A stretch of DNA of 64,000 bases from Rhynchopus sp. YZ270_cl-10 (GCA_964035575.1 OZ037838.1:1302001-1366000), one strand, 5' to 3'. Numbered from the stretch's first letter, positions 923 to 41,094 are shown. The notes: generated by a model not told the origin, from the letters alone. Made by a program: numbers and translations.

Positions 923-2056
923 ATGATGGATGTGACCTTTGTGCTGGAAGAGTCAGGCGTGACTGCGACAGTGGAGGTGCCGTGCGGGGCAGACGCTGCA
1001 GCGGCAAAGGAGGTTGCGTGCACGGCGCTTGCTGTCTCGCCTGCGTCTGTCGAGATGCGCATCGGCACGCAGGTGCTGGAGGGGACGTGCCGTCTGCAGG
1101 ACACTGCGTTTGGTGCAGGGGTGCAGGTTGTGCTTGCCCGCCCTCGCTTTGCTGACATCAAGTGTCCTGCTGAGTACAGCGCGGATGGGGGCGCGACGTA
1201 TATGTCGCTGTCACGTTGTGGAACGGTCTGCGTTTTTGTGCACTGGAATGGGCTTGTTGAAGGTTTCGACACAGAAACCTTCGACACTGTCTTCTCGTTT
1301 GGAGTGAGAGGTATAGAATGCGCTTTGATGGTACGCGGTGCGCCTGTCATCTCGGTTCACGGTCCACCTGCCATCTCACGGTGCATGACACGCTGCTACC
1401 TGGCGTGTGCGCATCACCTTCTCGAGGTTGCGCTTCCGGGTGGGGAGGTGCTCCGCAAAGTCGAAGGCTCCTCGATGGCAGTGTTCGCGTGTGGCAGTGT
1501 TGTTGTCTCAAAGGGCAAAGACGGCGTCTCTGTGTATGACGAAGACCTGACGTTGCTCCGCTTTCTCTCGCACGAAGGGTGTGAGGGTGAGGCAGTATCG
1601 GACTGTGGTGGGTGGGTGATCACCTCCTCCCTCACTGAGATGAAGGTACGTCTGTGGGATGTGAACACAGGTGAAGCTGTGGCATGTGTGCCTGAGGGTG
1701 ACTGGTGTTCAGTGGCGCTTTCACGGTCTGCCTCTGTCTTTGCTGTGGGGGTGGACAACACCGTGCACCTCTATGACTGGAGTGGTGCGGCTCTTCGCAG
1801 TATTGATGTAGGTGGGGTTGTCGTTGTCATGCAGTTCACCCCGTCTGGGAAGTACCTTGTGGTGGGGATACATGATGACGAAGATCCTCATTATACACAC
1901 CTGCACCAGTATGATGTGGCGACCATGTCTTGTGTGAGTGAACTGCAATGCTCATTTGAGTCATTTGCGATATCGCCATGTTCACGTGTTGTTGTGGTAT
2001 GGGAAGCAGATACCAACATTGCAACAAGACATCTGTACCCATACAACAGTCAGTGA
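923..2056 (+). CDS. Ubl-WD40 family copy 2 (ubiquitin-like domain + 7-blade beta-propeller)
   Basis: ATG-ATG at 923/926 starts the conserved MDVTFVLEESGVTATVEV...LEGTCRLQDT...VQVVLA beta-grasp-like segment, followed by seven WD-like blades. The upstream ORF extension is not conserved between copies. Confidence 0.88.
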   Translation: MMDVTFVLEESGVTATVEVPCGADAAAAKEVACTALAVSPASVEMRIGTQVLEGTCRLQDTAFGAGVQVVLARPRFADIKCPAEYSADGGATYMSLSRCGTVCVFVHWNGLVEGFDTETFDTVFSFGVRGIECALMVRGAPVISVHGPPAISRCMTRCYLACAHHLLEVALPGGEVLRKVEGSSMAVFACGSVVVSKGKDGVSVYDEDLTLLRFLSHEGCEGEAVSDCGGWVITSSLTEMKVRLWDVNTGEAVACVPEGDWCSVALSRSASVFAVGVDNTVHLYDWSGAALRSIDVGGVVVVMQFTPSGKYLVVGIHDDEDPHYTHLHQYDVATMSCVSELQCSFESFAISPCSRVVVVWEADTNIATRHLYPYNSQ

Positions 2057-2941
2057 TGTGTGACCAGGGGGGAGGGTGGCATAATTGTAGTGTCTGATAA
2101 CTGTAAACTGGCAGATATAATGGGGAATAGTCAGCCTACCTTTTTTTTTTTTACCCTCAACAACGCCCGCAAACCCTTTTTGCGGAGCAAAAAACGAAAA
2201 ATGGCGCCGCGGGCAAAAAAAAATTGGGTCCAGCCCTGGACGGTGCCGGATTTTTTTTGTCGATATTTTTTTCCCTTACCCCAGAAAAGGTAATTTATGT
2301 GGTCCACACGCGCTGGTTTTTGTATCTCGCTAATTTTTATCAAAAAGCCTAGTTTCGAGTGCGAAACGTTTCTCCATGTATTGCACGGGAAACAATATGA
2401 CAAACAGGTGCAGGGTAGTTCCGTGCATATCATAGAACTGGCACCTTGTGTGTCTTCCAAAAACCAAAAGCGTTGTGTGAAGTTTTGAAGGAAGGAAAAA
2501 TAAAACCACAACATGCAACACATAACAGTACCTCTCCCCCACCTCATCACTCCCTCCGTTTGTGGTGGAGCAAAGAAGAAGACAAAACAAAGAAAAATAG
2601 CGGATCTCATGCTCGGGGTGTCTGCACTAATCCAAACCAAATTTTCAAAAAAAGTTAGAAGAAAAGTTAGTGGAGCACACTCTAGGGTGGCTACACTAAT
2701 ACAACCAATTTTCAAAAAAAAAAAAAAAAAAAGATAGAAATTTCAAAAACAAAACATTCGCCCAATACAATGGACCTAAAAATTTACCCCCACCAAGTGT
2801 TCCTCTCTCCTTTTCTCTGCCTCTTTCTAGCATTGATGAAGACACTGCAACATAAAAGGAACACACTCACCTCGCTCCACATATTTAATCCCCCTTCCAC
2901 CGCCACCCCAACTACCACATTGCAGTGTATTGAATAAGAGA

Positions 2942-4051
2942 ATGGATGTGACCTTTGTGCTGGAAGAGTCAGGCGTGACTGCGACAGTGGAGGTGCCGTG
3001 CGAGGCGGACGCTGCAGCGGCAAAGGAGGTTGCGTGCACGGCGCTTGCTGTCTCGCCTGCGTCTGTCGAGATGCGCATCGGCACGCAGGTGCTGGAGGGG
3101 ACGTGCCGTCTGCAGGACACTGCGTTTGATTCAGGGGTGCAGGTTGTGCTTGCCCGCCGCTTTGCCAACATCAAGTGTCCTGCTGAGTATCGTGTACAGA
3201 GGGTGCAGAACTTATCGCTGTCTCGTTGTGGAACACTCTGTGTCTATGGTTGTTATGGTACGTTTGACAATGATTATGTTGCACATGTTGATGGCTTCGA
3301 CACAGAAACCTTCAACACTGCCTTCGCTTGTACTCTAGACAGTGGCTGCTTCATGTACGGTCCGCCTACCCTCTCACAGTGCAAAACATGCTGCTACGTG
3401 CCGTGTGGGGATGATTTACGCAAGGTTGCGCTTCCTGGTGGGCAGGTGCTCCGCAAACTCGACGTCCGCTCATACCTAGTATTTGCATGTGGCGGTGTTG
3501 TTGTCTCCAAAGGCAAAAACGGTCTCTCTGTGTATGACGAAGACCTGACGTTGCTCCGCACTCTCTCGCACAAGGATTGCAAGGACATGGCAGTGTCGGA
3601 CTGTGGTGGGTGGGTGATCACCTCCTCCTACAGTGAGAAGAACGCACGTCTGTGGGATGTGAACACAGGGGAAGCTGTAGCATGTGTGCCTGCGGGGGGC
3701 AAATACCAAGTGGCGCTTTCACGGCATGCCGCTGTCTTTGCTGTGGGAGGTGCTGACAGCATCCACCTCTATGACTGGGGAGGTACTGAAGTTCACAGGT
3801 CGATCGGAGGTGGGGAGGTGGGGTGCACGAAACTGCAGTTCACCCCGTGTGGGAAGTACGTTGTGTCTGCGACGCTAGCCGGCAACATAGAACATACACT
3901 GCACCAGTACGATGTGGCGACCATGTCCTGTGTGCGCGTGATCCCGAACGGCAGCTCTCTGTTTGCAATATCGCCGTGTTCACGTGTGGTTGTGTTTAGG
4001 AGTTTTGACGGCAACACCATTGAGACGAGACTTCTGTACCCACGTGAGTGA
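2942..4051 (+). CDS. Ubl-WD40 family copy 3
   Basis: Intact ORF from the conserved ATG at 2942, same architecture. Confidence 0.88.
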   Translation: MDVTFVLEESGVTATVEVPCEADAAAAKEVACTALAVSPASVEMRIGTQVLEGTCRLQDTAFDSGVQVVLARRFANIKCPAEYRVQRVQNLSLSRCGTLCVYGCYGTFDNDYVAHVDGFDTETFNTAFACTLDSGCFMYGPPTLSQCKTCCYVPCGDDLRKVALPGGQVLRKLDVRSYLVFACGGVVVSKGKNGLSVYDEDLTLLRTLSHKDCKDMAVSDCGGWVITSSYSEKNARLWDVNTGEAVACVPAGGKYQVALSRHAAVFAVGGADSIHLYDWGGTEVHRSIGGGEVGCTKLQFTPCGKYVVSATLAGNIEHTLHQYDVATMSCVRVIPNGSSLFAISPCSRVVVFRSFDGNTIETRLLYPRE

Positions 4052-5491: not shown

Positions 5492-6614
5492 ATGGATGTG
5501 ACCTTTGTGCTGGAAGAGTCAGGCGTGACTGCGACAGTGGAGGTGCCGTGCGAGGCGGACGCTGCAGCGGCAAAGGAGGTTGCGTGCACGGCGCTTGCTG
5601 TCTCGCCTGCGTCTGTCGAGATGCGCATCGGCACGCAGGTGCTGGAGGGGACGTGCCGTCTGCAGGACACTGCGTTTGATGCAGGGGTGCAGGTTGTGCT
5701 TGCCCGCCCTCGCTTTGCCGACATCAAGTGTCCTGCAGAATATAATGTGCAGCAGTGTCGCTGGGTAGAGATGGACTGGCGCGTTGGTGGTACTGCGTTT
5801 TCGGAGTACGTATCGCTGTCGCGTTGTGGCGCACTCTGCCTCTACAGTGATGGCAGGCATGTTGGTGGCTTCGACACAGAAACCTTTCTCAATGTCTTCG
5901 ACCTCACAATGGCCTATCGTCCGTACCGTGCGCCTGCCATCTCGCAGTGCAAGACACGCTGTTACATGGCTTGTAGGGAACACTTAAGCGAAGTTGCGCT
6001 TCCGGGTGGGGAGGTGCTCCGCAAAGTTGACGGCATCTCGCGCTCAGTGTACGCGTGTGGCAGTGTTGTCGTCTCCCTGAGCCTACACGGGGTCTCTGTG
6101 TATGACGAAGACCTGACGTTGCTCCGCTCTCTCTCGCATTTGCAGTGCAGGAAAGCGGCAGTATCGGACTGTGGTGGGTGGGTGATCACCTGCTCCCTTC
6201 AGTGAGAAGAACGCACGTCTGTGGGATGTGAACACAGGTGAAGCTGTGGCATGTGTGCCTATCGAGGAGGAATACCACGAAGTAGCGCTTTCACGGTCTG
6301 CCTCTGTCTTTGCTGTGGGGGACTCTCACGAAGTACGGCTCTATGACTGGAGAGGTGAGGCTCTTCGCAGTGTTGATGTGGATGGGGATATCGACGACAT
6401 GCACTTCACACCATGTGGAAAGTACCTTGTGGTCAATGTTTTCAGTCGCCGAAGTTCTAAGCTGCAACAGTATGATGTGGCGACCCTTTCCTGTGTGCAT
6501 GTACTCACGGAAATAGGACGTATCGGGTTTGTGATATCGCCCTGTTCACGTGTCGTTGTGTTTCCGTCCAATAATCGTAAAAACATTGTGACACGCCACC
6601 TGTACCCAGAATAG
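5492..6614 (+). pseudogene. Ubl-WD40 family copy 4 with a single +1 frameshift (pseudogene or assembly error)
   Basis: TGCTCCCTTCAGTGAGAAG at 6191 versus TGCTCCTTCAGTGAGAAG in copy 9: one extra C at 6195-6197. ORFs 5240..6205 and 6228..6614 join into one full-length protein. Confidence 0.75.
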
Positions 6615-6875: not shown

Positions 6876-8012
6876 ATGATGGATGTGACCTTTGTGCTGG
6901 AGGAGTCCGGCGTGACTGCGACAGTGGAGGTGCCGTGCGAGGCGGACGTTGCAGCGGCAAAGGAGGTTGCGTGCACGGCGCTTGCTGTCTCGCCTGCGTC
7001 TGTCGAGATGCGCATCGGCACGCAGGTGCTGGAGGGGACGTGCCGTCTGCAGGACACTGCGTTTGATTCAGGGGTGCAGGTTGTGCTTGCCCGCCGCTTG
7101 GCCGACATCAAGTGTCCTGCTGAGTACAGTATTGAGGTGCCACCTGGAACGCATCGGATGTATCTACATCGCTTTTCGCTGTCTCCTTGTGGAGCACTCT
7201 GCCTCTGTACACATCAGCAAGGCTATGTCACCGGCCTCGATACAGAAACCTTCAGCCCTGCCTTCAAGTTCAAAGTAGACTTTGAGGTGCGCGGTGAGCC
7301 TGCCATCTCACGGTGCAAGACACGCTGCTACCTGGCGTGCAAGGAAGTCCTTCTCGATGTTGCGCTTCCGGGTGGGGAAGTGCTCCGTAAAGTCGACGGC
7401 ATCTCGCGCTCAGTGTTCGCGTGTGGCGGTGTTGTTGTCTCCCAAGGCGAAAGAAGCGTCTCTGTGTATGACGAAGACCTGACGTTGCTCCGCTCTCTCT
7501 CGCTCGAAGGGTGTGCGGACATAGCAGTGTCGGACTGTGGTGGGTGGGTGATGACCTCCTCCAACAAGGAGAACAACGTACGTCTGTGGGATGTGAACAC
7601 AGGTGAAGCTGTTGCATGTGTACCGTTGGGGGAGCGGCGCTGTAGAGTGGTGGCGCTTTTACGGTCTGCCTCTGTCTTTGCTGTGGGGCAGAAAGAAGTC
7701 CGGCTCTATGATTGGAGTGGTGAGGCTCTTCGCAGTATTGATGTGGATGGGTCTCTCGAGTCTGTGCAGTTCACCCCGTGTGGGAAGTACCTTGTGGTAT
7801 GTGGAGAGGTCCTGGTTCCTGTTGAGGGTGAATACGGAACTGAGTATGATGAGGATGGTTACCTGCACCAGTATGATGTGGCGACCATGTCCTGTGTGCG
7901 TGTAATATCTCAAGAGTCATATGTGTCCTTTGCGATATCGCCGTGTTCACGCGTTGTTGTGGGTATGCAGCCAGATGGTGTCATTGTGACGAGATATCTG
8001 TACCGTGAGTGA
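6876..8012 (+). CDS. Ubl-WD40 family copy 5
   Basis: Intact ORF from ATG 6876/6879, with a long acidic loop in blade 6. Confidence 0.88.
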   Translation: MMDVTFVLEESGVTATVEVPCEADVAAAKEVACTALAVSPASVEMRIGTQVLEGTCRLQDTAFDSGVQVVLARRLADIKCPAEYSIEVPPGTHRMYLHRFSLSPCGALCLCTHQQGYVTGLDTETFSPAFKFKVDFEVRGEPAISRCKTRCYLACKEVLLDVALPGGEVLRKVDGISRSVFACGGVVVSQGERSVSVYDEDLTLLRSLSLEGCADIAVSDCGGWVMTSSNKENNVRLWDVNTGEAVACVPLGERRCRVVALLRSASVFAVGQKEVRLYDWSGEALRSIDVDGSLESVQFTPCGKYLVVCGEVLVPVEGEYGTEYDEDGYLHQYDVATMSCVRVISQESYVSFAISPCSRVVVGMQPDGVIVTRYLYRE

Positions 8013-8366: not shown

Positions 8367-9488
8367 ATGATGGATGTGACCTTTGTGCTGGAAGAGTCAG
8401 GCGTGACTGCGACAGTGGAGGTGCCGTGCGAGGCGAAGGTTGCAGCGGCAAAGGAGGTTGCGTGCACGGCGCTTGCTGTCTCGCCTGCGTCTGTCGAGAT
8501 GCGCATCGGCACGCAGGTGCTGGAGGGGACGTGCCGTCTGCAGGACACTGCGTTTGATTCAGGGGTGCAGGTTGTGCTTGCCTGCCGCTTTGCCGACGCC
8601 AAGTGTCCTGCTGAGTACACTGCAGCGCGTGCGACAGACTTGTTACTGTCGCGTTGTGGAGCGCTCTGCGTTTATAATTTTAATTCGCACGGGAGTGTGC
8701 ATGTTGGCGGCTTCGACACAGAAACCTTCGACACTATCTTCTCCTTTACAGTGGGCAATGTCGTGCACGGTGCGCCTGCCATCTCGCAGTGCAAGACACG
8801 CTGCTACCTGGCGTGTTGGAACGCAGGACTTCTCGAGGTTGCGCTTCCGGGTGGGGAGGTGCTCCGCAAAGTCGACAGCACCTCGTACTCAGTGTACGCG
8901 TGTGGCGGTGTTGTTGTCTCCGATGACAAAGACGGCGTCTCTGTGTATGACGAAGACTTGACGTTGCTCCGCTCTCTCTCGCACGAAGCGTGCGAGGACA
9001 TGGCAGTGTCGGACTGTGGTGGGTGGGTGATCACCTCCTCCAACAAGGAGAGGAACGTACGTCTGTGGGATGTGAACACAGGTGAATCTGTTGCATGTGT
9101 GCCGATGGAGGGGTGGTGTGGGGTGGCGCTTTCACGTTCTGCCTCTGTCTTTGCTGTGGATTGCTATACCACCGTGCACCTCTATGACTGGAGTGGTGCG
9201 GCTCTTGGCAGCTTTGATGTGGGTGGCAGTGTCAAGGGCATGCAGTTCACCCAGTGTGGGAAGTACCTTGTGGTGAGGGTTCGGGTTGTGCAACCTTTGG
9301 ATGATGGTGATTGCATTGTAGAGCGGCACCTGCACCAGTATGATGTGGCGACCATGTCCTGTGTGCATGAGATACCGCAAAGGTTTGTCGAGTCATTTGC
9401 GATGTCGCCGTGTTCACGTGTCGTTATGGTTTTGCAATCCAATGGCGTCATTGTAACGAGACATCTATACCCACACAACAGTGAGTGA
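8367..9488 (+). CDS. Ubl-WD40 family copy 6
   Basis: Intact ORF from ATG 8367/8370. Confidence 0.88.
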   Translation: MMDVTFVLEESGVTATVEVPCEAKVAAAKEVACTALAVSPASVEMRIGTQVLEGTCRLQDTAFDSGVQVVLACRFADAKCPAEYTAARATDLLLSRCGALCVYNFNSHGSVHVGGFDTETFDTIFSFTVGNVVHGAPAISQCKTRCYLACWNAGLLEVALPGGEVLRKVDSTSYSVYACGGVVVSDDKDGVSVYDEDLTLLRSLSHEACEDMAVSDCGGWVITSSNKERNVRLWDVNTGESVACVPMEGWCGVALSRSASVFAVDCYTTVHLYDWSGAALGSFDVGGSVKGMQFTQCGKYLVVRVRVVQPLDDGDCIVERHLHQYDVATMSCVHEIPQRFVESFAMSPCSRVVMVLQSNGVIVTRHLYPHNSE

Positions 9489-9903: not shown

Positions 9904-10983
9904 ATGGATGTGACCTTTGTGCTGGAAGAGTCAGGCGTGACTGCGACAGTGGAGGTGCCGTGCGAGGCGGACGTTGCAGCGGCAAAGGAGGTTGCGTGCA
10001 CGGCGCTTGCTGTCTCGCCTGCGTCTGTCGAGATGCGCATCGGCACGCAGGTGCTGGAGGGGACGTGCCGTCTGCAGGACACTGCGTTTGATGCAGGGGT
10101 GCAGGTTGTGCTTGCCCGCCCTCGCTTTGCCGACATCAAGTGTCCTGCTGAGTACAGTGCAACAGATGTGGAAAACTTGTCGCTGTCGCGTTGTGGAACG
10201 CTCTGCATCTATGTTCATCATAGGCATGTTGGCGGCTTCGACACAGAAACCTTCGACACTGTCTTCTCATTTGAAGTGGACACCAAAGTGATCCGTGGGC
10301 CTGCCATCTCGCAGTGCAAGACACGCTGCTACCTGCCATGTGGGGACTACCTACTCGAGGTTGCGCTTCCTGGTGGGGAGGTGCTCCGCAAAGTCGACGG
10401 CACCTCGATAGAAGTGTTCGCATGTGGCGATGTTGTTCTCTCCCAGGGCTTAGAAGGCGTGTCTGTGTATGACGAAGACATGACGTTGCTCCGCTCTCTC
10501 GCGCACGAGTTGTGCAGGAATGTAGCAGTGTCGCCCTGTGCTGAGTGGGTGATCACCTCCTCCTACAAGGAGAAGGAGGCACGTCTGTGGGATGTGAACA
10601 CAGGTGAAGCTGTTGCATGTGTACCTGCGCAGGGGTGGTGTAAAGTGGCGCTTTCACGGTATGCTTCTGTCTTTGCTGTGGAGGGGGTGGGAAATACCGT
10701 GCAGCTCTATGATTGGAGTGGTGCGGCTCTTCGCAGTGTTGATGTGGATGAGACAATCCGGGGCATGCAGTTCACACCATGTGGGAAGTACCTTGTGGTA
10801 AAGACTACATATGCGGGGCACCAGTATGATGTGGCGACCATGTCCTGTGTGCGTGTGTTCCCTGTCGTAGCTTTCTACTCTTCCTTTGCGATATCGCCGT
10901 GTTCACGTGTGGTTGTGTTCAAAGCAGCAAGAGGTGACACACAATGTGACGTTCTTTTCACTAGACATCTGTACCCCTACTGA
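9904..10983 (+). CDS. Ubl-WD40 family copy 7
   Basis: Intact ORF from ATG 9904. Confidence 0.88.
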   Translation: MDVTFVLEESGVTATVEVPCEADVAAAKEVACTALAVSPASVEMRIGTQVLEGTCRLQDTAFDAGVQVVLARPRFADIKCPAEYSATDVENLSLSRCGTLCIYVHHRHVGGFDTETFDTVFSFEVDTKVIRGPAISQCKTRCYLPCGDYLLEVALPGGEVLRKVDGTSIEVFACGDVVLSQGLEGVSVYDEDMTLLRSLAHELCRNVAVSPCAEWVITSSYKEKEARLWDVNTGEAVACVPAQGWCKVALSRYASVFAVEGVGNTVQLYDWSGAALRSVDVDETIRGMQFTPCGKYLVVKTTYAGHQYDVATMSCVRVFPVVAFYSSFAISPCSRVVVFKAARGDTQCDVLFTRHLYPY

Positions 10984-12956: not shown

Positions 12957-14057
12957 ATGGATGTGACCTTTGTGCTGGAAGAGTCAGGCGTGACTGCGAC
13001 AGTGGAGGTGCCGTGCGAGGCGGACGTTGCAGCGGCAAAGGAGGTTGCGTGCACGGCGCTTGCTGTCTCGCCTGCGTCTGTCGAGATGCGCATCGGCACG
13101 CAGGTGCTGGAGGGGACGTGCCGTCTGCAGGACACTGCGTTTGATGCAGGGGTGCAGGTTGTGCTTGCCCGCTGCTGTTCCAACATCAAGTGTCCTGCTC
13201 AGTACAGTATCCGAGACAACGTGCCAAAGTTCTCATTGTCTCTTTGCGGAACACTCTGCGTCTTGACTGACGATGTCCGTAGTTCCTGTATCGGCTTCGA
13301 CACCGACACCTTCAACACTGTCTTCAAGTTTGAGGTCGCATCTGATGATCTCGGAACGCCTGCCATCTCACGCTGCAAGGCACGCTGCTACCTCTCGGGT
13401 TGGAGCAACTTACGCATGATTGCGCTTCCAGATGGGGAGGTGCTCCGCAAAGTCGACGACCTCTCGAGAGCAGTGTTCGCGTGTGGTGGTGTTGTTGTCT
13501 CCCAGGGTGATGACGGCGTCTCTGTGTATGACGAAGACCTGACGTTGCTCCGCTCTCTCACACACAAAGGTTGTGAGAAAGTAGCAGTGTCTGACTGTGG
13601 TGGGTGGGTGATCACTTGCTCCGATGTGGAGAACAACGCACGTCTGTGGGATGTGAACACAGGTGAAGCTGTTGCATGTGTGCCTGCGGATGGGGGGTAC
13701 GTGTCTGTTTCACGGTCTGCCTCTGTCTTTGCTGTGGGGGTGGACAACACCGTGCACCTCTATGACTGGAGTGGTGCGGCTCTTGGTCGCGTTGATGTAG
13801 GTGAGGCTACGGAAGGCATGCAGTTCACCCCGTGTGGGAAGTACCTTGTGGTCAAGATATATTACAAGATACAGGAGTATGATCGGAAATACGAGCTTCG
13901 CCAGTATGATGTGGCGAACACGTCCTGTGTTCGTGTGTTCCGGAATGTTGGCAGTTCATCGTTTGCGATATCGCCGTGTTCACGTGTGGTTGTGTGTCAG
14001 GAACGCCACTCCATAGTGACGAGACATCTTTGCACACACAACATACAACAACAGTGA
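12957..14057 (+). CDS. Ubl-WD40 family copy 8
   Basis: Intact ORF from ATG 12957. Confidence 0.88.
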   Translation: MDVTFVLEESGVTATVEVPCEADVAAAKEVACTALAVSPASVEMRIGTQVLEGTCRLQDTAFDAGVQVVLARCCSNIKCPAQYSIRDNVPKFSLSLCGTLCVLTDDVRSSCIGFDTDTFNTVFKFEVASDDLGTPAISRCKARCYLSGWSNLRMIALPDGEVLRKVDDLSRAVFACGGVVVSQGDDGVSVYDEDLTLLRSLTHKGCEKVAVSDCGGWVITCSDVENNARLWDVNTGEAVACVPADGGYVSVSRSASVFAVGVDNTVHLYDWSGAALGRVDVGEATEGMQFTPCGKYLVVKIYYKIQEYDRKYELRQYDVANTSCVRVFRNVGSSSFAISPCSRVVVCQERHSIVTRHLCTHNIQQQ

Positions 14058-27025: not shown

Positions 27026-28144
27026 ATGATGGATGTGACCTTTGTGCTGGAAGAGTCAGGCGTGACTGCGACAGTGGAGGTGCCGTGCGAGGCGGACGTT
27101 GCAGCGGCAAAGGAGGTTGCGTGCACGGCGCTTGCTGTCTCTCCTGCGTCTGTCGAGATGCGCATCGGCACGCAGGTGCTGGAGGGGACGTGCCGTCTGC
27201 AGGACACTGCGTTTGATGCAGGGGTGCAGGTTGTGCTTGCCTGTCGCTTTGCCGACATCAAGTGTCCTGCTGAGTACAGTGTAGCGGCGCCGTTGTCTTC
27301 TCACATTTCACTCTCACGTTGTGGGACGCTTTGTGTCTTCTCTAGCCCTTTGTTTGGGCAGTTTTTCGGATTAGAGACAGAAACCTTCGAGACTGCCTTC
27401 AAATTCAAAGTAGACATTGAGGTGTGCGGTGAGCCTGCCATCTCACGGTGCAAGACACGCTGCTACCTGGCGGGCGAGGGAGATCTTCTCGAGGTTGCGC
27501 TTCCGGGTGGGGAGGTGCTCCGCACAGTGGACTGCTCGTCAAAGGCAGTGTTCGCGTGTGGCGTTGTTGTCTCCCAAGGCAAAGACGGCGTCTCTGTGTA
27601 TGGCGAAGACCTGACGTTGCTCCGCTCTATCTCGCACGAAGGGTGCAGGCGCGTAGCAGTATCGGACTGTGGTGGGTGGGCGATATCCTCCTCCGCCTTG
27701 GAGAAGAACGCACGTCTGTGGGATGTGAACACAGGTGAAGCTGTTGCCTGTGTTCGTTTGGTTGGGGGCACCTACCAAGTGGCGCTTTCCCCGTCTGCCT
27801 CTGTCTTTGCTGTGGTGTGCTCTGACAAGGTGCAGCTCTATGACTGGAGTGGTGTGGCTCTTCGTAGTGTTGATACGGAAAGACGGGAGGTGGGGCAGAT
27901 GCAGTTCACACCGTGCGGAAAGTACCTTGTGGTCAGAACCTCTTTGCTCTTATTCGATGGTGACTCTTTTCTGTGTGATAAGGAGCACGAACTCCGTCAG
28001 TATGACGTGGCGACCATGTCCTGTGTGCGCGTGATCCCGAAGAGCGGCACTCTATTTGCGATATCACCTTGTTCACGTGTGGTTGTGTTCCGGTGTGGCG
28101 GAGTGGTGAAGACGAGACATCTTCACCCTTACAGCAGGGACTGA
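27026..28144 (+). CDS. Ubl-WD40 family copy 10
   Basis: Intact ORF from ATG 27026/27029. Confidence 0.88.
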   Translation: MMDVTFVLEESGVTATVEVPCEADVAAAKEVACTALAVSPASVEMRIGTQVLEGTCRLQDTAFDAGVQVVLACRFADIKCPAEYSVAAPLSSHISLSRCGTLCVFSSPLFGQFFGLETETFETAFKFKVDIEVCGEPAISRCKTRCYLAGEGDLLEVALPGGEVLRTVDCSSKAVFACGVVVSQGKDGVSVYGEDLTLLRSISHEGCRRVAVSDCGGWAISSSALEKNARLWDVNTGEAVACVRLVGGTYQVALSPSASVFAVVCSDKVQLYDWSGVALRSVDTERREVGQMQFTPCGKYLVVRTSLLLFDGDSFLCDKEHELRQYDVATMSCVRVIPKSGTLFAISPCSRVVVFRCGGVVKTRHLHPYSRD

Positions 28145-28246
28145 GGCTTTGCCGTGCGCGAGGTGTAGCTCTTGCCCACTTCCACTTCCACTCCTTCTTG
28201 GCGGCGTGTGAGACGCGTCGCCAAGAAGCCCCTCTAGTGCCTAGGT

Positions 28247-28716: not shown

Positions 28717-29930
28717 ATGGATGTGACCTTTGTGCTGGAAGAATCAGGCGTGACTGCGACAGTGGAGGTGCCGTGCGAGGCGGACGTTGCAGCGGCAAAG
28801 GAGGTTGCGTGCACGGCGCTTGCTGTCTCGCCTGCGTCTGTCGAGATGCGCATCGGCACGCAGGTGCTGGAGGGGACGTGCCGTCTGCAGGACACTGCGT
28901 TTGATGCAGGGGTGCAGGTTGTGCTTGCCCGCCCTCGCTTGGCCGATATCAGGGTGGCGCGTTCCCCTGCAAGTGTCCTGCTGAGTACACATGCTTCGGA
29001 GTGTTTGAGCACCATATTTGCACATTCTCGTTGTCTCCTTGTGGAACGCTCTGTCTCTATTTCTTCCAAAGCCATTCAGCCTCGGACGGAAGGATATTCT
29101 TCTCCATCTTTGACACTGAAACCTTCGAGTTGGTGTTCAAGTTTGAAATCGACTACGGAGAGTATCGCGAGTGCAAACTAGGTAGAGCTGCCATCTCACG
29201 GTGCAAAACACGTTGCTACATCCCGTATGATTGCTACCCCCACAATAGTGGTTTTCTGCAGTGTGTTGCACTTCCGAGTGGAGAGGTGCTCCGCAAAGTT
29301 GAGCGCACCTCGAGAGCAGTGTTCGCATGTGGCGATGTTGTTCTCTCCGAAGGCGAAGACGGCGTCTCTGTGTATGACGAAGACCTGACGTTGCTCCGCT
29401 CTCTCTCGCACAAGCATTGTAGGCACGCGGCAGTGTCGCGGTGGGTGGGTGACCACCTACTCCAAGAAAGAGGACGACGTACGTCTGTGGGATGTGAACA
29501 CAGGCGAAACTGTGTCATGTACACAGGTGGAGTTGTGGTGTGGCCACTGGTGCATTGGGGTAGCGCTTTCGCGGTCTGCTTCTCTCTTTGCTACGGGGGT
29601 CTCTTTCGGAATACAGCTCTATGATTGGAGTGGTGCGGCTCTTCGCAGTGTCGATGTGGATGAGAGCATCCGGGGCATGCAGTTCACCCCGTGTGGGAAG
29701 TACCTTGTGGTCAGTATCCGAACGGTCAAGGTGGATGTTTTTCTGGAACCTACGGAAGATAGCACTGATGATGTGGATGACGATGATGATTGTTACGCTA
29801 TTGACTGACGGAACTCCGCCAGTACGATGTTGCAACCATGTCGTGTGTGCATGTGATACAAGAAGTCTGTGAGTCGTTTGAGATATCGCCGTGTTCACGT
29901 GTGGTTGTGTTTGCGGAGGTGGGGACAACC
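28717..29930 (+). pseudogene. Ubl-WD40 family copy 11 (three frameshifts)
   Basis: A 20-nt insertion at 28950-28969, a ~5-nt deletion at ~29439, a frameshift and stop at ~29806-29810, and loss of the TRHLYP terminus. Confidence 0.85.
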
Positions 29931-31096
29931 TTTGCTCTCCCCTGTTCACATCAAAACAAAGAGGGTCGGTAATCATGTTATTGATGTTTAATTTTTCTGT
30001 TTACACGTATGAAAATACACCCACACAGCGCAGCATTGCGCACCTCGTAACCTCCAGTTGCATTACACCTCAGCTTAATCTCCCCTTTCCTGTGCCCTAC
30101 TTAAACTACTACTTTTCTTTTTCCCATCCCCCACCCCGTTGCCTTACTGTGCTTGCACTACCCACCCCCTGATATAAATACACCTACACAGCGCAGCATT
30201 GCGCACCTCGTACTCCAGTTGCATTACACAGACTGGAGATGTTGAGCCGAATGAGGGTTCGAGAAGTTGGAGAGAAAGTTGACCTATTGCCTGCTTCCAC
30301 ACCTGTGGTGTGTGGCACCCTGTAAGTTCTTTGTGTAATGATGTCAACTACTTTGGATTACAGCAATGCGAACAGTGTGTTCAAGAATTTAATTTTGATA
30401 AAAATGATCGTGGCACCACTAATCATATTCATTTCCTGTATTTGCACATCAAACAATCATCGTGCACTACCTTGGCTCTCGTAAGTAACAAAGTTGTAAG
30501 GACCTTCAACAGAAAGTATGAAGATCGGAGGACGAGAATTTGTTCATATTCTTCTTGTCTGTCTGTTTGTAAATGGTGCATGTGCACACAACATTGGTGT
30601 ATTCGTAGTGACCATATTGAGTTGCAGCCCAACCACGACAACATAATATACCACACCCTCCCCAGTCCCACCCTGTAATGCAACCAAGTTTTTAAAGAAA
30701 AATAAACAAAAAACAAAATAAAACAGCACAACAAAGAACACGAAACACGAAACCACACACCTTTGTTTCCCCTCCGTACCTCCCTCTGCTCTCCTCTTTT
30801 GCAAGAACGCTCCTTCGTTTATGAAGCAATCTTCTTTTATTCTCCTAAACGCATGCATCGCAAACATTTTGTTGCTTGCTAACTCAGTCAGACACAACAC
30901 AGAACACATCGACGCACCCTCTACCTCTAACCTGTGAGGAAATTTATTCTCAGACATTTTAATTTTTCACTTTTGCCTGTTCAAACCCTTCTGTTGGTGG
31001 AAACTGACACAACGAAAACATCACAAACACACAAAACAAAAACAACCCACACCTCATCTCCTCCTAACAGAGGTGGAACAAGAAGAAGACAAAGCA

Positions 31097-32236
31097 ATGA
31101 TGGATGTGACCTTTGTGCTGGAAGAGTCAGGCATGACTGCGACAGTGGAGGTGCCGTGCGAGGCGGACGTTGCAGCGGCAAAGGAGGTTGCGTGCACGGC
31201 GCTTGCTGTCTCGCCTGCGTCTGTCGAGATGCGCATCGGCACGCAGGTGCTGGAGGGGACATGCCGTCTGCAGGACACTGCGTTTGATGCAGGGGTGCAG
31301 GTTGTGCTTGCCCGCCCTCGCTTTGCCGACATCAAGTGTCCTGCTGAGTGCAGTGTAGAGGCGCCACCTGGAAGGACAACTGGTGGTCAGCGGATGAATC
31401 GATTAACGCTGTCACCTTGTGGAGCACTCTGCCTCTTTACACAGGAGGATGGCTATGTAACCGGCCTCGATACAGACACCTTCAGCCCTGCCTTCAGGTT
31501 CAAAGTAGACTTTGAGGGGTACGCTGTGCCTGCCATCTCACGGTGCAAGACACGCTGCTACCTGGTGTCCTGGGAAGGTCTGCACGAGTTTGCGCTTCCG
31601 GGTGGGGAGTTTCTCCGCAAAGTCGACGGCACCTCGTTCCAAGTGTTCGCCTGTGGCAGGGTTGTTGTCTCCCGTGGCGAAGACGGGGTCTCTGTGTATG
31701 ACGAAGACCTGACGTTGCTCCACACTCTCTCGCACGAAGGGTGTGGGTGTGTGGCAGTGTCGGACTGTGGTGGGTGGGTGATCACCTCCTCCTACAAGGA
31801 GAGGAACGCACGTCTGTGGGATGTGAACACAGGTGAAGCTGTGGCATGTGTGCCTGCGGATGGGGGCATCGTGGCGCTGTCACGGTCTGCCTCTATCTTT
31901 GCCGTGGAGTGCTCTCTGGCTGAGAAAGCGCAGCTCTATGACTGGAGTGGGGCGGCTCTTGGCAGCTTTGAAAAGGAGGAGTCTCGCGTATGTGCCGTGC
32001 AGTTCACTCCATGTGGGAAGTACGTCGTCGTTGGGTTTGATAACAATGATGTTCGATATTGTGGAGAGTATACTCTGCACCAGTATGATGTGGCGACCAT
32101 GTCCTGTGTGCGTTCGATACAGGACAGCAAAGGTGTATTTGCGATCTCGCCGTGTTCACGTGTGGTTGTGTCCAAGGCAGCAGGAGGTGACGCAGGAGGC
32201 GACGTCCTTGTGACACAACATCTGTACCCCTACTGA
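31097..32236 (+). CDS. Ubl-WD40 family copy 12
   Basis: Intact ORF from ATG 31097/31100; closest to copy 9. Confidence 0.88.
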   Translation: MMDVTFVLEESGMTATVEVPCEADVAAAKEVACTALAVSPASVEMRIGTQVLEGTCRLQDTAFDAGVQVVLARPRFADIKCPAECSVEAPPGRTTGGQRMNRLTLSPCGALCLFTQEDGYVTGLDTDTFSPAFRFKVDFEGYAVPAISRCKTRCYLVSWEGLHEFALPGGEFLRKVDGTSFQVFACGRVVVSRGEDGVSVYDEDLTLLHTLSHEGCGCVAVSDCGGWVITSSYKERNARLWDVNTGEAVACVPADGGIVALSRSASIFAVECSLAEKAQLYDWSGAALGSFEKEESRVCAVQFTPCGKYVVVGFDNNDVRYCGEYTLHQYDVATMSCVRSIQDSKGVFAISPCSRVVVSKAAGGDAGGDVLVTQHLYPY

Positions 32237-32779: not shown

Positions 32780-33844
32780 ATGGATGTGACCTTTGTGCTG
32801 GAAGAGTCAGGCGTGACTGCGACAGTGGAGGTGCCGTGCGAGGCGGACGTTGCAGCGGCAAAGGAGGTTGCGTGCACGGCGCTTGCTGTCTCGCCTGCGT
32901 CTGTCGAGATGCGCATCGGCACGCAGGTGCTGGAGGGGACGTGCCGTCTGCAGGACACTGCGTTTGATGCAGGGGTGCAGGTTGTGCTTGCCTGTCCTCG
33001 CTTGGCCGACATCAAGTGTCCTGCTCAGTACACTGCAACGCATGTGGGACCCTTGTCACTGTCGCCTTGTGGAACGCTCTGCGTCTATAGTAGCAGGGAT
33101 GGGCATTTTGATGGTTTCGACACAGAAACCTTCGACACTGTCTTCTCGTTCATACTGGACACTCTAGTGTCCGGTCTGCCTGCCATCTTACAGTGCAAGA
33201 CACGCTGCTACTTGGCGTGTGAGAATTGCCTTCTCGAGGTTGCGCTTCCTGGTGGGGAGGTGCTCCGCAAAGTTGACGGCACCTCGAACGCAGTGTTCAC
33301 GTGTGGCGGTGTTGTTGTCTCGAAGGGCGAAGACGGCGTCTCTGTGTATGACGAAGACCTCACGTTGCTCCGCTCTCTCTCGCACAAAGGGTGCACGACC
33401 ACGGTAGTGTCTGACTGTGGTGAGTGGGTGATCACCTCCTCCCTCAGTGATCAGAAGTCCCGTCTGTGGGATGTGAACACAGGTGAAGCTGTGGCATGTG
33501 TGCCTTCGGGGTGGTTGCCTAGAGTGGCGCTTTCACGGTCTGCCTCTGTCTTTGCTGTGGGGCAGGGTGAAGTCCACCTCTATGATTGGAGTGGTGCGGC
33601 TCTCTGCAGTGTTGATGTGCGTGGGGATATCCAGGGCATGCAGTTCACCCCGTGTGGGAAGTACCTTGTGGTAAGGAATCTAAACGAGCTGCACCAGTAT
33701 GATGTGGCGACCATGTCCTGTGTGCATGTGATACCGCATAGGGAGGTTATGTCCTTTGCAATATCGCCGTGTTCACGTGTTGTGGTTTTGCAACGAGATC
33801 GCGTCATTGTGACGAGGCATCTGTACCCACACAACAGTGAGTGA
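32780..33844 (+). CDS. Ubl-WD40 family copy 13 (shortest loops)
   Basis: Intact ORF from ATG 32780. Confidence 0.88.
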   Translation: MDVTFVLEESGVTATVEVPCEADVAAAKEVACTALAVSPASVEMRIGTQVLEGTCRLQDTAFDAGVQVVLACPRLADIKCPAQYTATHVGPLSLSPCGTLCVYSSRDGHFDGFDTETFDTVFSFILDTLVSGLPAILQCKTRCYLACENCLLEVALPGGEVLRKVDGTSNAVFTCGGVVVSKGEDGVSVYDEDLTLLRSLSHKGCTTTVVSDCGEWVITSSLSDQKSRLWDVNTGEAVACVPSGWLPRVALSRSASVFAVGQGEVHLYDWSGAALCSVDVRGDIQGMQFTPCGKYLVVRNLNELHQYDVATMSCVHVIPHREVMSFAISPCSRVVVLQRDRVIVTRHLYPHNSE

Positions 33845-34368: not shown

Positions 34369-35481
34369 ATGATGGATGTGACCTTTGTGCTGGAAGAGTC
34401 AGGCGTGACTGCGACAGTGGAAGTGCCGTGCGAGGCGGACGTTGCAGCGGCAAAGGAGGTTGCGTGCACGGCGCTTGCTGTCTCGCCTGCGTCTGTCGAG
34501 ATGCGCATCGGCACGCAGGTGCTGGAAGGGACGTGCCGTCTGCAGGACACTGCGTTTGATGCAGGAGTGCAGGTTGTGCTTGCCCGCCCTCGCTTTGCCA
34601 ACATCAAGTGTCCTGCTGAGTACACTGTAGGTGTAGAGGTGATACCTGGAATGCATGAAGGGAGTGTATATGAATTTTCGCTGTCTCCTTGTGGAGCACT
34701 CTGCCTCTTTGCACAGGAGGAAGGCAATGTGACCGTCCTCGATACAGAAACCTTCAGCCCTGCCTTCAAGTTCAAAGTAGACATTGTGGTGTGCGGTCCT
34801 CCCGCCATCTCACGGTGCAAGACACGCTGCTACATGGCGAGTAGGAATTGTCTTGCCAAGGTTGCGCTTCCGGGTGGGGAGGTGCTCCGCAAAGTCGATG
34901 GCAACTCGTACGCAGTATTCGCGTGTGGCGGTGTTGTTGTCTCCCAAGGTGACGACGGTGTCTCTGTGTATGACGAAGACCTGACGTTGCTCCGCTTTCT
35001 CTCGCATAAACGGTGCAGGGACGTGGCAGTGTCGGACTGTGGTGGGTGGGTGATCACCTCCTCCAACAAGGAGAAGAACGCACGTCTGTGGGATGTGAAC
35101 ACAGGTGAAGCTGTGGCATGTGTGCCTGCTAATAGGATCGTGTCGCTTTCACGATCTGCCTCAGTCTTTGCTGTGGTGTGTAACGAAGTGCAGCTCTATG
35201 ACTGGAGTGGTGCGGCTCTTCGCAGCTTTGCAAATGCAGGTCAAAAAATTTCTGGCCTGCAGTTCACTCCCTCCGGGAAGTATCTCGTTGTACGGTTGAT
35301 GGATGTGGGTGCTGAAAAATATTCACTGCACCAGTATGATGTAGCGACCATGTCCTGTGTGCGTGTGTTACCGGCCTCCGACGACTGCGGCCAGTTTACG
35401 ATATCGCCGTGCTCACGTGTGGTACTATTTACGAACAGCAAACGAGACGCTATTGTGACGAGACATCTGCACCCCTACTGA
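34369..35481 (+). CDS. Ubl-WD40 family copy 14
   Basis: Intact ORF from ATG 34369/34372. Confidence 0.88.
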   Translation: MMDVTFVLEESGVTATVEVPCEADVAAAKEVACTALAVSPASVEMRIGTQVLEGTCRLQDTAFDAGVQVVLARPRFANIKCPAEYTVGVEVIPGMHEGSVYEFSLSPCGALCLFAQEEGNVTVLDTETFSPAFKFKVDIVVCGPPAISRCKTRCYMASRNCLAKVALPGGEVLRKVDGNSYAVFACGGVVVSQGDDGVSVYDEDLTLLRFLSHKRCRDVAVSDCGGWVITSSNKEKNARLWDVNTGEAVACVPANRIVSLSRSASVFAVVCNEVQLYDWSGAALRSFANAGQKISGLQFTPSGKYLVVRLMDVGAEKYSLHQYDVATMSCVRVLPASDDCGQFTISPCSRVVLFTNSKRDAIVTRHLHPY

Positions 35482-35830: not shown

Positions 35831-35863
35831 AAACAATGGATGTGACCCTTGCACCCTCGACCT
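35831..35863 (+). pseudogene. Deletion scar of a lost Ubl-WD40 copy
   Basis: AAACAATGGATGTGACC (family start) is fused directly to TTGCACCCTCGACCT, a motif from the downstream spacer of copies 7, 9 and 12. Confidence 0.65.
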
Positions 35864-37336: not shown

Positions 37337-37339
37337 TAT

Positions 37340-37893: not shown

Positions 37894-37979
37894 TAGGGGG
37901 TCTCCTGGTCAGTATATTAGCTGTCCGAAAAATTAGTAAATAAATATAAAATGCTCTATGTGCTCAGAAACGGCATAAC

Positions 37980-38256
37980 TTGACATGTGTTTATGGAATT
38001 GGTCCCGTACCAAGGTGTCTTGTTCGGTGTGATTTGTGCTGAAATGGATAGATTCTGAGGGTAAATGCTGCAAGCGCTAGGTATTCCGTGACGCAAATAA
38101 ATTGACATGTGTTTGTGGATTTGGTCCCGTACCAAGGTGTCTTGTTGGATGTGATTTGTGCTGAAATGGATAGATTCTGAGGGTAAATGCTGCAAGCGCT
38201 AGGTATTCCGTGACGCAAATAAATTGACATGTGTTTGTGGAATTGGTCCCGTACCA
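37980..38256. repeat. 122-bp tandem satellite B, ~2.3 copies
   Basis: TGACATGTGT recurs at 37981, 38103 and 38225. Confidence 0.92.
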
Positions 38257-38274
38257 CAACCGCAACCGCAATAA

Positions 38275-39473: not shown

Positions 39474-39963
39474 GAAGTGCCATTTCTCCCTGCTGAAACA
39501 AAACTCGCGCACGCCACCAAATTTCCAGTGTCCGCAGTGTCGCACCACTTATTTTTTTCGCATTTTGAGGGGGGGGAAATGCAAAATGAAAACAAAATTT
39601 TGGTAGATTCACAGAATTCAGATTTTTGCTAAGGTGCTGGCAGCTGGCCCCAAAAAAAAAAAAAAAATATTTTCCCCCCACATTTTTTGGTCCAGGGTCA
39701 CAAAAAAAAATCTCCGATTCCTGAAACCCCAAATCCTGGCGGAAACCCTGCCGGGGGGGGAAAAACAAAAAAAAAAAATTTTGTTTTTTTTGACAAAAAC
39801 GGCCAAAAACGACAAAATAGTTTTTACGACAAAAATTCCTTCACAAATTGTACAGGATGAGACCCCCTACTCCACTCAGGCGTAACGCAAACATCACAAA
39901 CACACAAAACAAAACTACACACCTCATCTCCCAACAGAGGTGGAACAAGAAGAAGACAAAACA

Positions 39964-41094
39964 ATGGATGTGACCTTTGTGCTGGAAGAGTCAGGCGTGA
40001 CTGCGACAGTGGAGGTGCCGTGCGAGGCGGACGTTGCAGCGGCAAAGGAGGTTGCGTGCACGGCGCTTGCTGTCTCGCCTGCGTCTGTCGAGATGCGCAT
40101 CGGCACGCAGGTGCTGGAGGGGGCGTGCCGTCTGCAGGACACTGCGTTTGATGCAGGGGTGCAGGTTGTGCTTGCCCGCCGCTTTGCCGACATCAAGTGT
40201 CCTGCTGAGTACAATGTTTGTGTGAGGGAGGCAGAATTTTTGTCGCTGTCTCCTTGTGGAGCACTCTGCCTCTATTGTTATGAGATATGTGCTGGTGGCG
40301 ATTACGTTGCGCATGTTGGTGGCTTCGACACAGAAACCTTCAACGCTTCATTAGCTTTTTCAGAAGGCAACAGCCTTTTCATGTACGGTCCGCCTGCCAT
40401 CTCACAGTGCAAGACGCGCTGCTACCTACCGTGTGGGCAAGACTTACGCAAGGTTGCGCTTCCTGGTGGGGAGGTGCTCCGCAAAGTTGAAGGCCGCTCG
40501 TACGCAGTGTTCGCGTGTGGTGGTGTTGTTGTCTCCCAAGGCAATGACGGAGTCTCTGTGTATGACGAAGACCTGACGTTGCTGCGTTCTATCTCACACA
40601 AGAGTTGTGAAGGCTTGGCAGTATCGGACTGTGGTGGGTGGGTGATCACCTCCTCGAAGGAGAGGAACGCACGTCTGTGGGATGTGAACACAGGTGAAGC
40701 TGTGGCATGTGTGCCTATGTCAAGGTACGCTGTAGCGCTGTCACGGTCTGCCTCTGTCTTTGCTGTGGTGGGCTCTGTGGCTGAGGCAGCGAGAGTGCAG
40801 CTCTACGACTGGAGTGGTGCGGCTCTTCAGAACGCCACTATATCTGGAAGTGTCTATGGCGTGCAATTCACCCACTGTGGGAAGTACCTTGTGGTCCATG
40901 TACAAAAGCGCACTGACGATGAAGCAGAATATGAGCTGCAACAGTATGATGTGGCGACCATGTCCTGTGTACTTGTGATCCCGGACGTCACCGGTGCGTC
41001 ATTTGCGATATCACCGTGTTCGCGTGTGGTTGTGTTCGTATCCTCCGACAGCACCAATATTTCGACAAGGCATCTGTACCCCCACAACGAGTGA
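39964..41094 (+). CDS. Ubl-WD40 family copy 15
   Basis: Intact ORF from ATG 39964; its 3' part and downstream spacer closely match copy 1. Confidence 0.88.
   Translation: MDVTFVLEESGVTATVEVPCEADVAAAKEVACTALAVSPASVEMRIGTQVLEGACRLQDTAFDAGVQVVLARRFADIKCPAEYNVCVREAEFLSLSPCGALCLYCYEICAGGDYVAHVGGFDTETFNASLAFSEGNSLFMYGPPAISQCKTRCYLPCGQDLRKVALPGGEVLRKVEGRSYAVFACGGVVVSQGNDGVSVYDEDLTLLRSISHKSCEGLAVSDCGGWVITSSKERNARLWDVNTGEAVACVPMSRYAVALSRSASVFAVVGSVAEAARVQLYDWSGAALQNATISGSVYGVQFTHCGKYLVVHVQKRTDDEAEYELQQYDVATMSCVLVIPDVTGASFAISPCSRVVVFVSSDSTNISTRHLYPHNE

Follow-up and report, generated by a model that had tools for sequence, protein, structure and literature searches.

The locus considered here raises the question of why one short coding segment should be nearly identical in many copies of a gene, even at silent sites, which constraint on the protein alone would not fix. 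In the window, i.e., the whole 64-kb stretch of Rhynchopus sp. YZ270_cl-10 DNA that was analysed, 14 cassettes of 213 nt (ATG...GTGCTTGCC) were found, and in pairwise comparison each differed from that of copy 7 by 0-4 nt. Because copy 1 of the first-pass annotation is the 5'-truncated gene at 1-501, its copy 7 is the cassette that starts at 9904, and direct comparison bore out both the spread that it had reported and the lack of differences in copies 8, 9 and 13. The copies are as follows, with the number of nucleotides by which each cassette differs from that of copy 7.

1..501, + strand: copy 1, a family gene truncated by the edge of the window to its 3' part; almost the same framework and 3' flank as in copy 15
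926..2056, + strand: copy 2, intact Ubl-WD40 gene; cassette 926-1138, 4 nt
2942..4051, + strand: copy 3, intact; cassette 2942-3154, 2 nt
5492..6614, + strand: copy 4, one frameshift near 6200; cassette 5492-5704, 1 nt
6879..8012, + strand: copy 5, intact; cassette 6879-7091, 3 nt
8370..9488, + strand: copy 6, intact; cassette 8370-8582, 3 nt
9904..10983, + strand: copy 7, intact, the reference (0 nt); cassette 9904-10116, linker to ~10155, predicted seven-bladed propeller ~10150-10980
12957..14057, + strand: copy 8, intact; cassette 12957-13169, 0 nt
25590..26714, + strand: copy 9, intact; cassette 25590-25802, 0 nt
27029..28144, + strand: copy 10, intact; cassette 27029-27241, 1 nt
28717..29945 (end approximate), + strand: copy 11, decayed pseudogene; cassette 28717-28929, 1 nt, synonymous
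31100..32236, + strand: copy 12, intact; cassette 31100-31312, 2 nt
32780..33844, + strand: copy 13, intact; cassette 32780-32992, 0 nt
34372..35481, + strand: copy 14, intact; cassette 34372-34584, 3 nt, all synonymous
35836..35847, + strand: 12-nt stub equal to the cassette start, with a unique flank before it and unrelated repeat-rich DNA after it; probably a copy that was interrupted
39964..41094, + strand: copy 15, intact; cassette 39964-40176, 1 nt

Twelve of the 14 full copies in the window are intact genes, which encode 354-378 aa each and consist of the Ubl and propeller only. The frameshift in copy 4 marks either a young pseudogene or an assembly error. Copy 11 carries a 20-nt insertion just past the cassette, a 5-nt deletion, a stop in the propeller part and a ragged 3' end; with a single change in its cassette, it confirms that the invariance extends to pseudogenes. 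The boundary is sharp, as identity begins at the ATG beside unlike flanks, and the edge effect is faint (pS 0.05 in codons 1-10, from two changes in one copy). The several upstream spacer types that had been noted earlier were found to be three shared and two unique types of 5' flank among the 14 copies. The genes of the neighbourhood lie on the same strand and have apparent GT-AG introns, features that are reminiscent of diplonemids/euglenozoans and may point to such a lineage, and the best matches of a neighbouring amidohydrolase are eukaryotic.

A collapse of the cassette to a consensus during assembly or polishing is highly improbable. The invariance is not a polishing artefact because the same cassette occurs in contigs that derive from the runs of other studies: a 213-base contig of run X8 corresponds exactly to 9904-10116 with 0 differences at a depth of 36, compared to 2-10 for the other listed pieces, run X6 has identical pieces at a depth of 123-147, and only 5 positions in 271 bases reach 2% across four runs from four studies. 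Private variants were also kept, with 17 distinct variants over the 14 copies and many 71-aa head variants among 119 proteins from the matches listed. In favour of a collapse, the comparison across studies was made on contigs, which lose rare variants.

All of the DNA statistics rest on the 14 window copies, and the codon statistics on 12 of the 15 copies, with copies 1, 4 and 11 excluded. Along the codons of the 12 intact copies, pS was 0.023 [0.009-0.041] in the cassette and 0.209 [0.169-0.250] in equally conserved propeller codons, i.e., silent diversity was approximately 9-fold lower in the cassette. According to the first-pass annotation, a simple recent duplication of whole genes would have left dS equally low in the propeller; because the two values are unequal, that explanation is refuted, and we attach almost no probability to it. 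A few pairs, copies 9 and 12 and copies 1 and 15, are indeed close, but the level of silent diversity changes 9- to 22-fold within a single gene (0.023 in the Ubl, 0.209 in the framework, then 0.291, 0.416 and 0.514 in the most variable codons), most propeller distances lie at 0.18-0.29 and different parts of the gene have different histories. Near-invariance continues past the cassette through the linker to approximately codon 84 (pS 0.030 for codons 1-84). The earlier statement that alignment is lost after CPAEY does not hold: each of the 11 remaining intact copies can be aligned with copy 7 along 356-359 aa, at 65.6-74.0% identity, and it is short near-invariant blocks alternating with hypervariable loops that follow this motif. 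Codon bias was rejected on inspection as a cause of the invariance, as the cassette fixes differing codons for the same residue, e.g., all four for Ala and all four for Thr.

Silent sites that are nearly fixed over 213 nt, pseudogenes included, could also reflect a function of the DNA or RNA itself, such as an RNA structure, a small-RNA target, a protein-binding site or an overlapping gene. Two antisense frames are open across the cassette, and the X8 contig from another study matches it throughout. This role, which the first-pass annotation had suggested, gained no support and is very unlikely. The residual variants are enriched in synonymous changes (9/17 compared to 27% expected, p=0.02), the folding energy is as ordinary as in the propeller segments (MFE z -0.77 with dinucleotide shuffling and -1.15 with codon shuffling), and an Rfam search of the cassette gave no match. 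Of the two antisense frames, one has the same wobble positions as the sense frame and stays open in 54% of the recoded controls; the other is open in 21% of them and shows no silent excess (3/17), so neither constrains the cassette. Moreover, a contig of run X9 that spans the cassette differs from it at 8/215 bases, and its depth of 13, compared to 2-6 for most of the other listed pieces, accompanies these eight other letters.

The cassette encodes a ubiquitin-like head, a relationship that is seen at the sequence and profile level. The assignment is based on the heads of diverged relatives and not on the query head itself: Pfam ubiquitin was matched by 4 of the 10 heads in an alignment of diverged relatives (best E 2.9e-6), and the profile of this alignment matched Ubl/ubiquitin chains in the PDB (5zew, E 3.9e-6; 1zw7, E 9.8e-5) in alignments that, as shown, are ungapped over positions 8-70. 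The query head alone gave no ubiquitin match in a direct PDB sequence search or a Pfam scan. Its structural model is of low confidence (pLDDT 33-48 within the full-length model, 43.6 for the head by itself), although the order of strands and helix fits a beta-grasp; a fold search with this poor single-sequence AlphaFold model gave no match at E<=0.001, and the best ESM Atlas score for residues 1-76 (0.81) was uninformative. The di-glycine of conjugatable (type I) modifiers is absent, and the last strand runs ...VVLA-RPRFADIK into the linker. The Ubl of proteasome shuttles of the Rad23/Dsk2 type has a Leu8-Ile44-Val70 hydrophobic patch, which is lacking here, as the equivalent residues are Glu9, Arg45 and, by a one-step extension of the PDB alignment, Ala71. 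NLE1/Rsa4 and WDR12/Ytm1, which are conserved single-copy ribosome-assembly factors, share the domain order of an integral Ubl followed by a WD40 propeller; an NLE cluster was a weak lead (score 0.83), and the NLE head (PF08154) was not matched among the Pfam families listed.

The downstream part is confidently predicted to be a seven-bladed WD40 propeller. The model of copy 7 has seven four-stranded blades, and its pLDDT is mostly above 90 over residues 100-320; the top matches of the fold search include WDR5, G-beta and LIS1 (E ~1e-16), and Pfam gave weak WD40-type matches. The relatives were drawn from 120 of 420 matches listed, of which one was dropped at start trimming, and entropy was calculated on 115 proteins after excluding four that were identical to window copies. 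Mean entropy was 2.48 bits in the 14 top loops compared to 0.28 in the 13 bottom loops. All of the 71 variable columns (71/71) lie in the top loops (DA and BC), which alternate with the conserved loops of the predicted propeller; this count is partly circular, because the limits of the top loops were set manually by someone who could see the entropy profile, but the strict alternation is not. Each loop occurs in 68-125 distinct versions among 127 proteins, most loops are unique and many differ in length, and the blades within one gene are unlike each other.

Several lines of evidence show that the copies are mosaics of one another. None of 500 permutations gave a PHI statistic as low as that observed, 6 of 66 pairs had shared fragments at a global p<0.05, and loops of 12 and 19 aa were common to pairs of the 127 proteins whose other loops were only 33% and 44% identical. 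The correlation between neighbouring loops is only ~0.1 and rises again at the largest separations (r 0.06-0.15). The 5' flank was unlinked to any propeller segment (Mantel p 0.16-0.96), a result from 12 copies with low power; the propeller of copy 9 is nearest to that of copy 12 (p=0.11, the closest pair), while the 5' flanks of the two are unrelated. In pseudogene 11, the cassette has 1/213 differences compared to 36/356 in the framework (p=5e-7). The gene conversion that had been proposed earlier is supported by the permutation and longest-shared-fragment tests and by this pseudogene. Its restriction to the Ubl domain is not, since the propeller framework is subject to conversion too, as are probably the flank modules. 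The 3' modules that copies share outside the coding sequence match one another as closely as the cassettes do (p 0.018-0.034, four pairs).

The strength of conversion follows the distance from the variable loops. Framework pS fell from 0.36 through 0.24, 0.23 and 0.21 to 0.12 with rising distance from the nearest variable column (Spearman -0.35, p=4e-6, 161 codons). A tract model fitted to these 161 propeller codons alone was better than a flat model by ~25 log units (with down-weighted pairs), and it predicted a cassette pS of 0.016-0.031 with 100-nt tracts and 0.007-0.022 with 200-nt tracts, compared to the observed 0.023. At 30 nt it over-predicts (0.067-0.087), and its range across tracts of 30-1000 nt is 0.001 to 0.087; because propeller data cannot identify tract length, the match signifies compatibility and not proof. 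Since a model that was built on the propeller predicts a low cassette pS with tracts of ~100 nt or more, the cassette is likely just the one long loop-free stretch.

We therefore favour, with fair but not full confidence, the explanation that ordinary conversion between copies made the cassettes nearly identical and was probably held back where its tracts would overwrite the variable loops of the binding face. Conversion would start anywhere in the gene, and tracts that overwrite variable loops would be selected against or blocked by mismatches. The blocks of the propeller (33-57 nt) would be too short for frequent homogenisation, which would leave the Ubl and linker (~250 nt) as the sole long loop-free stretch; purifying selection on the protein would keep this stretch alike, so that conversion keeps running, and crossovers within it would reshuffle the 5' flanks against the propellers. 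The recombination anchor suggested in the first-pass annotation could plausibly arise from this in a passive form, whereas a dedicated one gained no support. The heads of diverged subfamilies are only 63-80% identical, as is expected after an escape from conversion.

A dedicated process, in which the cassette actively serves as a recombination anchor or hotspot and/or directed mutagenesis acts on the loops so that new receptors are programmed, possibly within clones, would also explain why identity begins exactly at the ATG and why most loops are unique. The 3' flanks of copies 1 and 15 differ at only 5/279 positions, yet their top-face loops have been replaced by wholly different ones through clustered, multi-base changes, and a mutation gradient centred on the loops would likewise raise nearby silent diversity. 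We nevertheless consider such a process unlikely. The smooth distance model, in whose fit the cassette had no part, already predicts that diversity is low there, and third positions in the variable codons show no bias towards a single base (A.18, C.26, G.30, T.27). A scan of 15 neighbouring ORFs revealed neither a recombinase nor a reverse transcriptase, and the majority of the copies are not silent partial cassettes but intact genes, each with flanks of its own.

No more probable is the explanation that the loops are simply tolerant, with neither selection for diversity nor a recognition repertoire; gathering substitutions and indels, they would leave a mismatch-sensitive conversion and yield the same gradient of silent diversity. 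The pooled omega of the top loops is ~1 (1.13 [0.92-1.37]; M0 omega 1.0), and the many length changes in the loops would fit as well. Against this, a site class with omega 2.5-3 was strongly favoured in the codon-model tests, and a class with omega ~2.5 on ~69% of the 67 top-loop codons was still favoured when class-specific synonymous rates were allowed (2dl=27), although this evidence of positive selection is suggestive only, because recombination and loop misalignment can inflate such tests. Furthermore, only one face varies, whereas the opposite face has fixed surface loops and the Ubl is fixed over its entire surface, and no fewer than 127 different proteins that combine a constant head with a variable face have been kept, as have the intact genes of the window.

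Judging from the sequences, the family likely acts as a recognition repertoire that feeds one shared partner. Each protein would bind a different target by its top face and pass it on via the constant Ubl and the bottom face, and the partner would most likely belong to defence or protein quality control; we put forward this scheme of binding and handover tentatively, at somewhat less than even chances. Such a repertoire would function as a set of recognition proteins comparable to antibodies, and the shared partner, if any, would be common to the whole family. The defences of microbial eukaryotes against viruses and intracellular bacteria are poorly known. The boldest version, a protist intracellular 'antibody' system in which a dedicated process uses the cassette as a recombination anchor and rewrites the loops of hundreds of receptors within clonal lineages, so that viral or bacterial proteins are recognised and passed to a shared machine, is improbable.

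The conversion mechanism is already known from fungal WD40 receptors. In Podospora anserina, the HNWD NLRs (het-d, het-e and het-r) draw on a pool of WD40 repeats with a diversified DA loop and BC turn (PMC1805685, in part). According to the same excerpts, the DA/BC positions of the top face are diversified as they are here, the rest is homogenised by concerted evolution and stays fit for further exchange, and pseudogenes belong to the exchange pool. There, however, what is exchanged is a single repeat of ~40 aa, and blades hardly differ either within a locus or among the few loci involved, whereas here each gene has seven distinct blades, exchange is position-for-position among more than 120 small genes and whole loops vary, indels included. 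The HNWD propellers, as described in those excerpts, are fused to NACHT and HET domains, while the Ubl head is the only other domain here. The pattern of conversion with selected sites aligns well with that in an excerpted account of CEACAMs, in which selection on sites leaves divergence peaks that are narrower than the tract in homogenised paralogues; the present family differs in its 14 peaks per gene, its very large size and one long homogenised valley that equals a domain, and, unlike here, the converted domain in that account is the ligand-facing one. The expanded F-box ubiquitin-ligase adaptors of nematodes and plants comprise hundreds of tandem genes with a proposed defence role and, similarly, join a conserved N-terminal machine-binding module to a fast-evolving substrate-binding one (PMC8120010, in part), but the head here is a Ubl and not an F-box, and any tie to an E3 ligase would be putative. 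Crinkler/CR proteins also have Ubl 'header' domains and swap unrelated enzymatic C-termini (PMC5289972, in part); here the partner is always the same propeller without an enzyme domain, and no Crinkler Pfam match was found.

As an example of conversion that selected sites limit, the cassette is probably ordinary but very clean, and it offers a good natural test of that theory, with 14 barriers per gene, more than 100 copies and a measurable decay of silent diversity. Of greater interest is the design behind it, in which the many members of a family in a microbial eukaryote pair a constant head with a variable face. The scaffold also indicates which of the WD40 loops tolerate free variation, a point of relevance to binder design. 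Such a Ubl-propeller family is apparently undescribed in the literature searched, in which no description was met, and the main text of the D. papillatum genome paper does not contain 'ubiquitin', 'WD40' or 'propeller'. No DNA of relatives was found in metagenome or viral contig collections; one DNA-pattern match (L001) was an unrelated WD40 gene and not a family member. Two longer forms of the family that were scanned had no match to a NACHT domain, and the six longer forms that were examined showed a tandem pair and other additions.

Comparison with copy 7 (9904), which was used as the reference, bore out that the cassette, i.e., the 213-nt Ubl-encoding start of each family gene, is nearly invariant; the 14 cassettes differed from it by 0-4 nt, with no difference in copies 8, 9 and 13 and one change in pseudogene copy 11.

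926-40176, + strand: 14 cassettes, ATG to GTGCTTGCC (sequence comparison)
1-501, + strand: copy 1, cut at its 5' end

The 12 intact gene copies in the window encode 354-378 aa, while copy 4 carries a single frameshift and copy 11 several lesions. The first-pass annotation described the copies as unalignable downstream of the cassette, which was wrong, as each of the remaining 11 intact copies can be aligned to it, at 65.6-74.0%, when copy 7 serves as reference, over nearly the full length. The 12 intact copies were aligned by codon, and the columns were classed by their entropy in 115 other family proteins, which are the best matches to copy 7 and hence biased towards it. Silent diversity (pS) was 0.023 in the cassette, 0.074 in the linker and 0.209 in propeller codons that are nearly as conserved at the protein level (nonsilent diversity, pN, 0.043), and it climbed further over three classes of increasingly variable propeller codons (0.291, 0.416 and 0.514). 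Silent sites in the framework of conserved propeller codons therefore vary about nine times as much as those in the cassette, which upholds the proposal that the similarity of the cassettes goes beyond protein constraint, and because of this difference a recent whole-gene duplication was ruled out. Moreover, silent diversity of the framework dropped as the distance from a variable loop grew; a propeller block separating two loops has 11-19 codons, and the Ubl plus linker spans 84 codons.

Collapse of the cassette during assembly is unlikely because the contigs of public sequencing runs match the cassette and the assembly keeps 17 private variants in its 14 cassettes. In run X8, whose study is not the one behind the best-matching runs, one 213-base contig spans exactly 9904-10116 with 0 differences at a depth of 36, compared with 2-10 for the other listed pieces of this run; this is the outcome expected of a read-built graph if many copies share the cassette. 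Run X6 holds identical cassette pieces at a depth of 123-147. In the contigs aligned to the cassette, which lose rare variants, only 5 positions in 271 bases reach 2% (X4, X6, X7 and X8).

The family copies recombine. The PHI statistic was lower than in all 500 permutations, significant fragments were common to six pairs of copies, and the nearest neighbour of a copy switches along the gene. Otherwise unlike proteins have long loops in common, and the loops are almost unlinked. Additionally, the 5' flank types are independent of the propellers, as in copies 9 and 12, whose propellers are the closest and whose 5' flanks are unrelated. Of the domain-restricted gene conversion proposed earlier, the conversion is thus supported by the mosaic copies and the distance gradient, but its restriction to the Ubl domain is not, since the whole gene is affected. 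A simple model of homogenisation, whose tracts spare the variable loops and which was fitted to 161 propeller codons only, gave a cassette pS of 0.016-0.031 (0.023 observed) with 100-nt tracts and of 0.067-0.087 with 30-nt tracts, the tract length not being fixed by the data. The non-coding 3' modules, where shared, match each other as closely as the cassettes do. The 3' flank common to copies 7, 9 and 12 opens with a stretch that by eye resembles the QFTPCGKYL coding block (10984-11020, 26715-26750 and 32237-32270), as if it had been derived from a partial gene duplication.

The alternative suggestion, a DNA- or RNA-level role, found no support: the cassette showed no RNA structure signal, no Rfam match and no second reading frame constraining it. 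Pseudogene copy 11 has a 20-nt insertion directly behind the cassette and the most first- and second-position changes in the framework (15/237), compared with 0/142 in its cassette; therefore, homogenisation does not require an intact gene, even though copy 11 could conceivably still give a truncated Ubl product. Protein-level selection has left its mark on the residual cassette variants, which are enriched for synonymous changes (9/17, p=0.02).

A protein search with a family protein returned 420 matches among 3201 candidates; the best 120 of these were examined. Among these 120, 87 sit on contigs as long as the one carrying the window protein (2.71 Mb) and 33 on contigs of seven other lengths, and we infer that all of them come from one genome. 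Including the window copies, there are at least 127 distinct family proteins. The predicted model contains a propeller of seven blades, which has high confidence and matches WDR5, G-beta and LIS1, and a head of low confidence. The head can nevertheless be assigned as a Ubl by sequence homology because distant full-length relatives match Pfam ubiquitin and their profile aligns to ubiquitin. It lacks the di-glycine, and the hydrophobic patch of ubiquitin, Leu8/Ile44/Val70, corresponds to Glu9/Arg45/Ala71. The heads of diverged subfamilies are only 63-80% identical. Across 119 proteins, cassette codons 23-24 and 63-64 are the only recurrently variable Ubl residues (entropy 0.3-1.1 bits); they vary independently of the propeller loops and might form a small patch of variation on the head.

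Along the propeller, entropy alternates strictly, from 2.48 bits in 14 DA and BC loops to 0.28 bits in 13 AB and CD loops. The DA and BC loops form the top binding face of WD40 propellers (PMC1805685). By WD40 topology, the N-terminal strand closes the ring from the bottom, which would place the head by the conserved face. The pooled omega of the top loops was about 1; site models favoured a class with omega 2.5-3, although such tests are inflated by recombination and misalignment. Four members (P0122-P0125) carry a long, near-identical C-terminal extension of about 300-380 aa, which would be either an additional constant module or the product of reading through into a flank they share; no Pfam match was found in the one of the four that was scanned. 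In P0126, the family part comes after a region rich in Cys and His and an additional Ubl-like segment of a different kind (weak FERM_N match), an arrangement that may reflect a fusion or a gene-calling join.

We propose that selection would preserve the head and the bottom face and favour, or at least tolerate, change in the top loops, while conversion and unequal exchange would operate over the whole gene. Exchange would often succeed in the single long loop-free stretch and less so in the short blocks, where it would also shift loops between copies, and the outcome would be a recombining pool with a constant and a variable part. The top face would likely bind different targets and the constant part one shared partner; our best guess for the role of the family is defence or protein quality control. 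In its workings the family is comparable to the Podospora HNWD WD40 pool (PMC1805685); it fits the divergence-island model (via PMC3728101; 10.1101/2025.10.29.685298; PMC8860441) and resembles in design the expanded F-box adaptors (PMC8120010) and the Ubl-header Crinklers (PMC5289972). By the features tested, it belongs to none of HNWD, F-box adaptors or Crinklers. A published description of this family was not found in the literature searched, which covers few subscription papers; the mechanism is already known, and the family is apparently undescribed.

Other elements were also observed in the window. A mobile insertion has probably disrupted a family copy at 35836-39960, where a 12-nt cassette stub is followed by an 82-nt element present twice (35869 and 37894), by tandem repeats of 122 bp (36449-37336) and by remnants of ORFs, among them a fragment with ankyrin repeats (37482-37943). 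An insertion at 11248-12457, with 103-nt inverted repeats at its ends (11248-11350 and 12355-12457, 96%) and short tandem repeats inside, appears MITE-like. A dispersed repeat of about 55 nt (9710-9770 and 44950-45005; weaker at about 19970-20015 and 60608-60685), on which very many contigs of X1, X2 and X4 stack with loose T-rich ends, had no Rfam match and resembles a SINE-like element in high copy number or a 3'-UTR signal. Directly after the last family copy come an ORF for a dynamin-like GTPase (Pfam Dynamin_N, a weak match with E 7e-4) and then one further ORF (together 41575-44425). The window also holds a U-box ORF (19266-19913), a weak F-box-like ORF (47986-48519) and, at 55310-56272, about 11 tandem repeats of an 87-bp unit.
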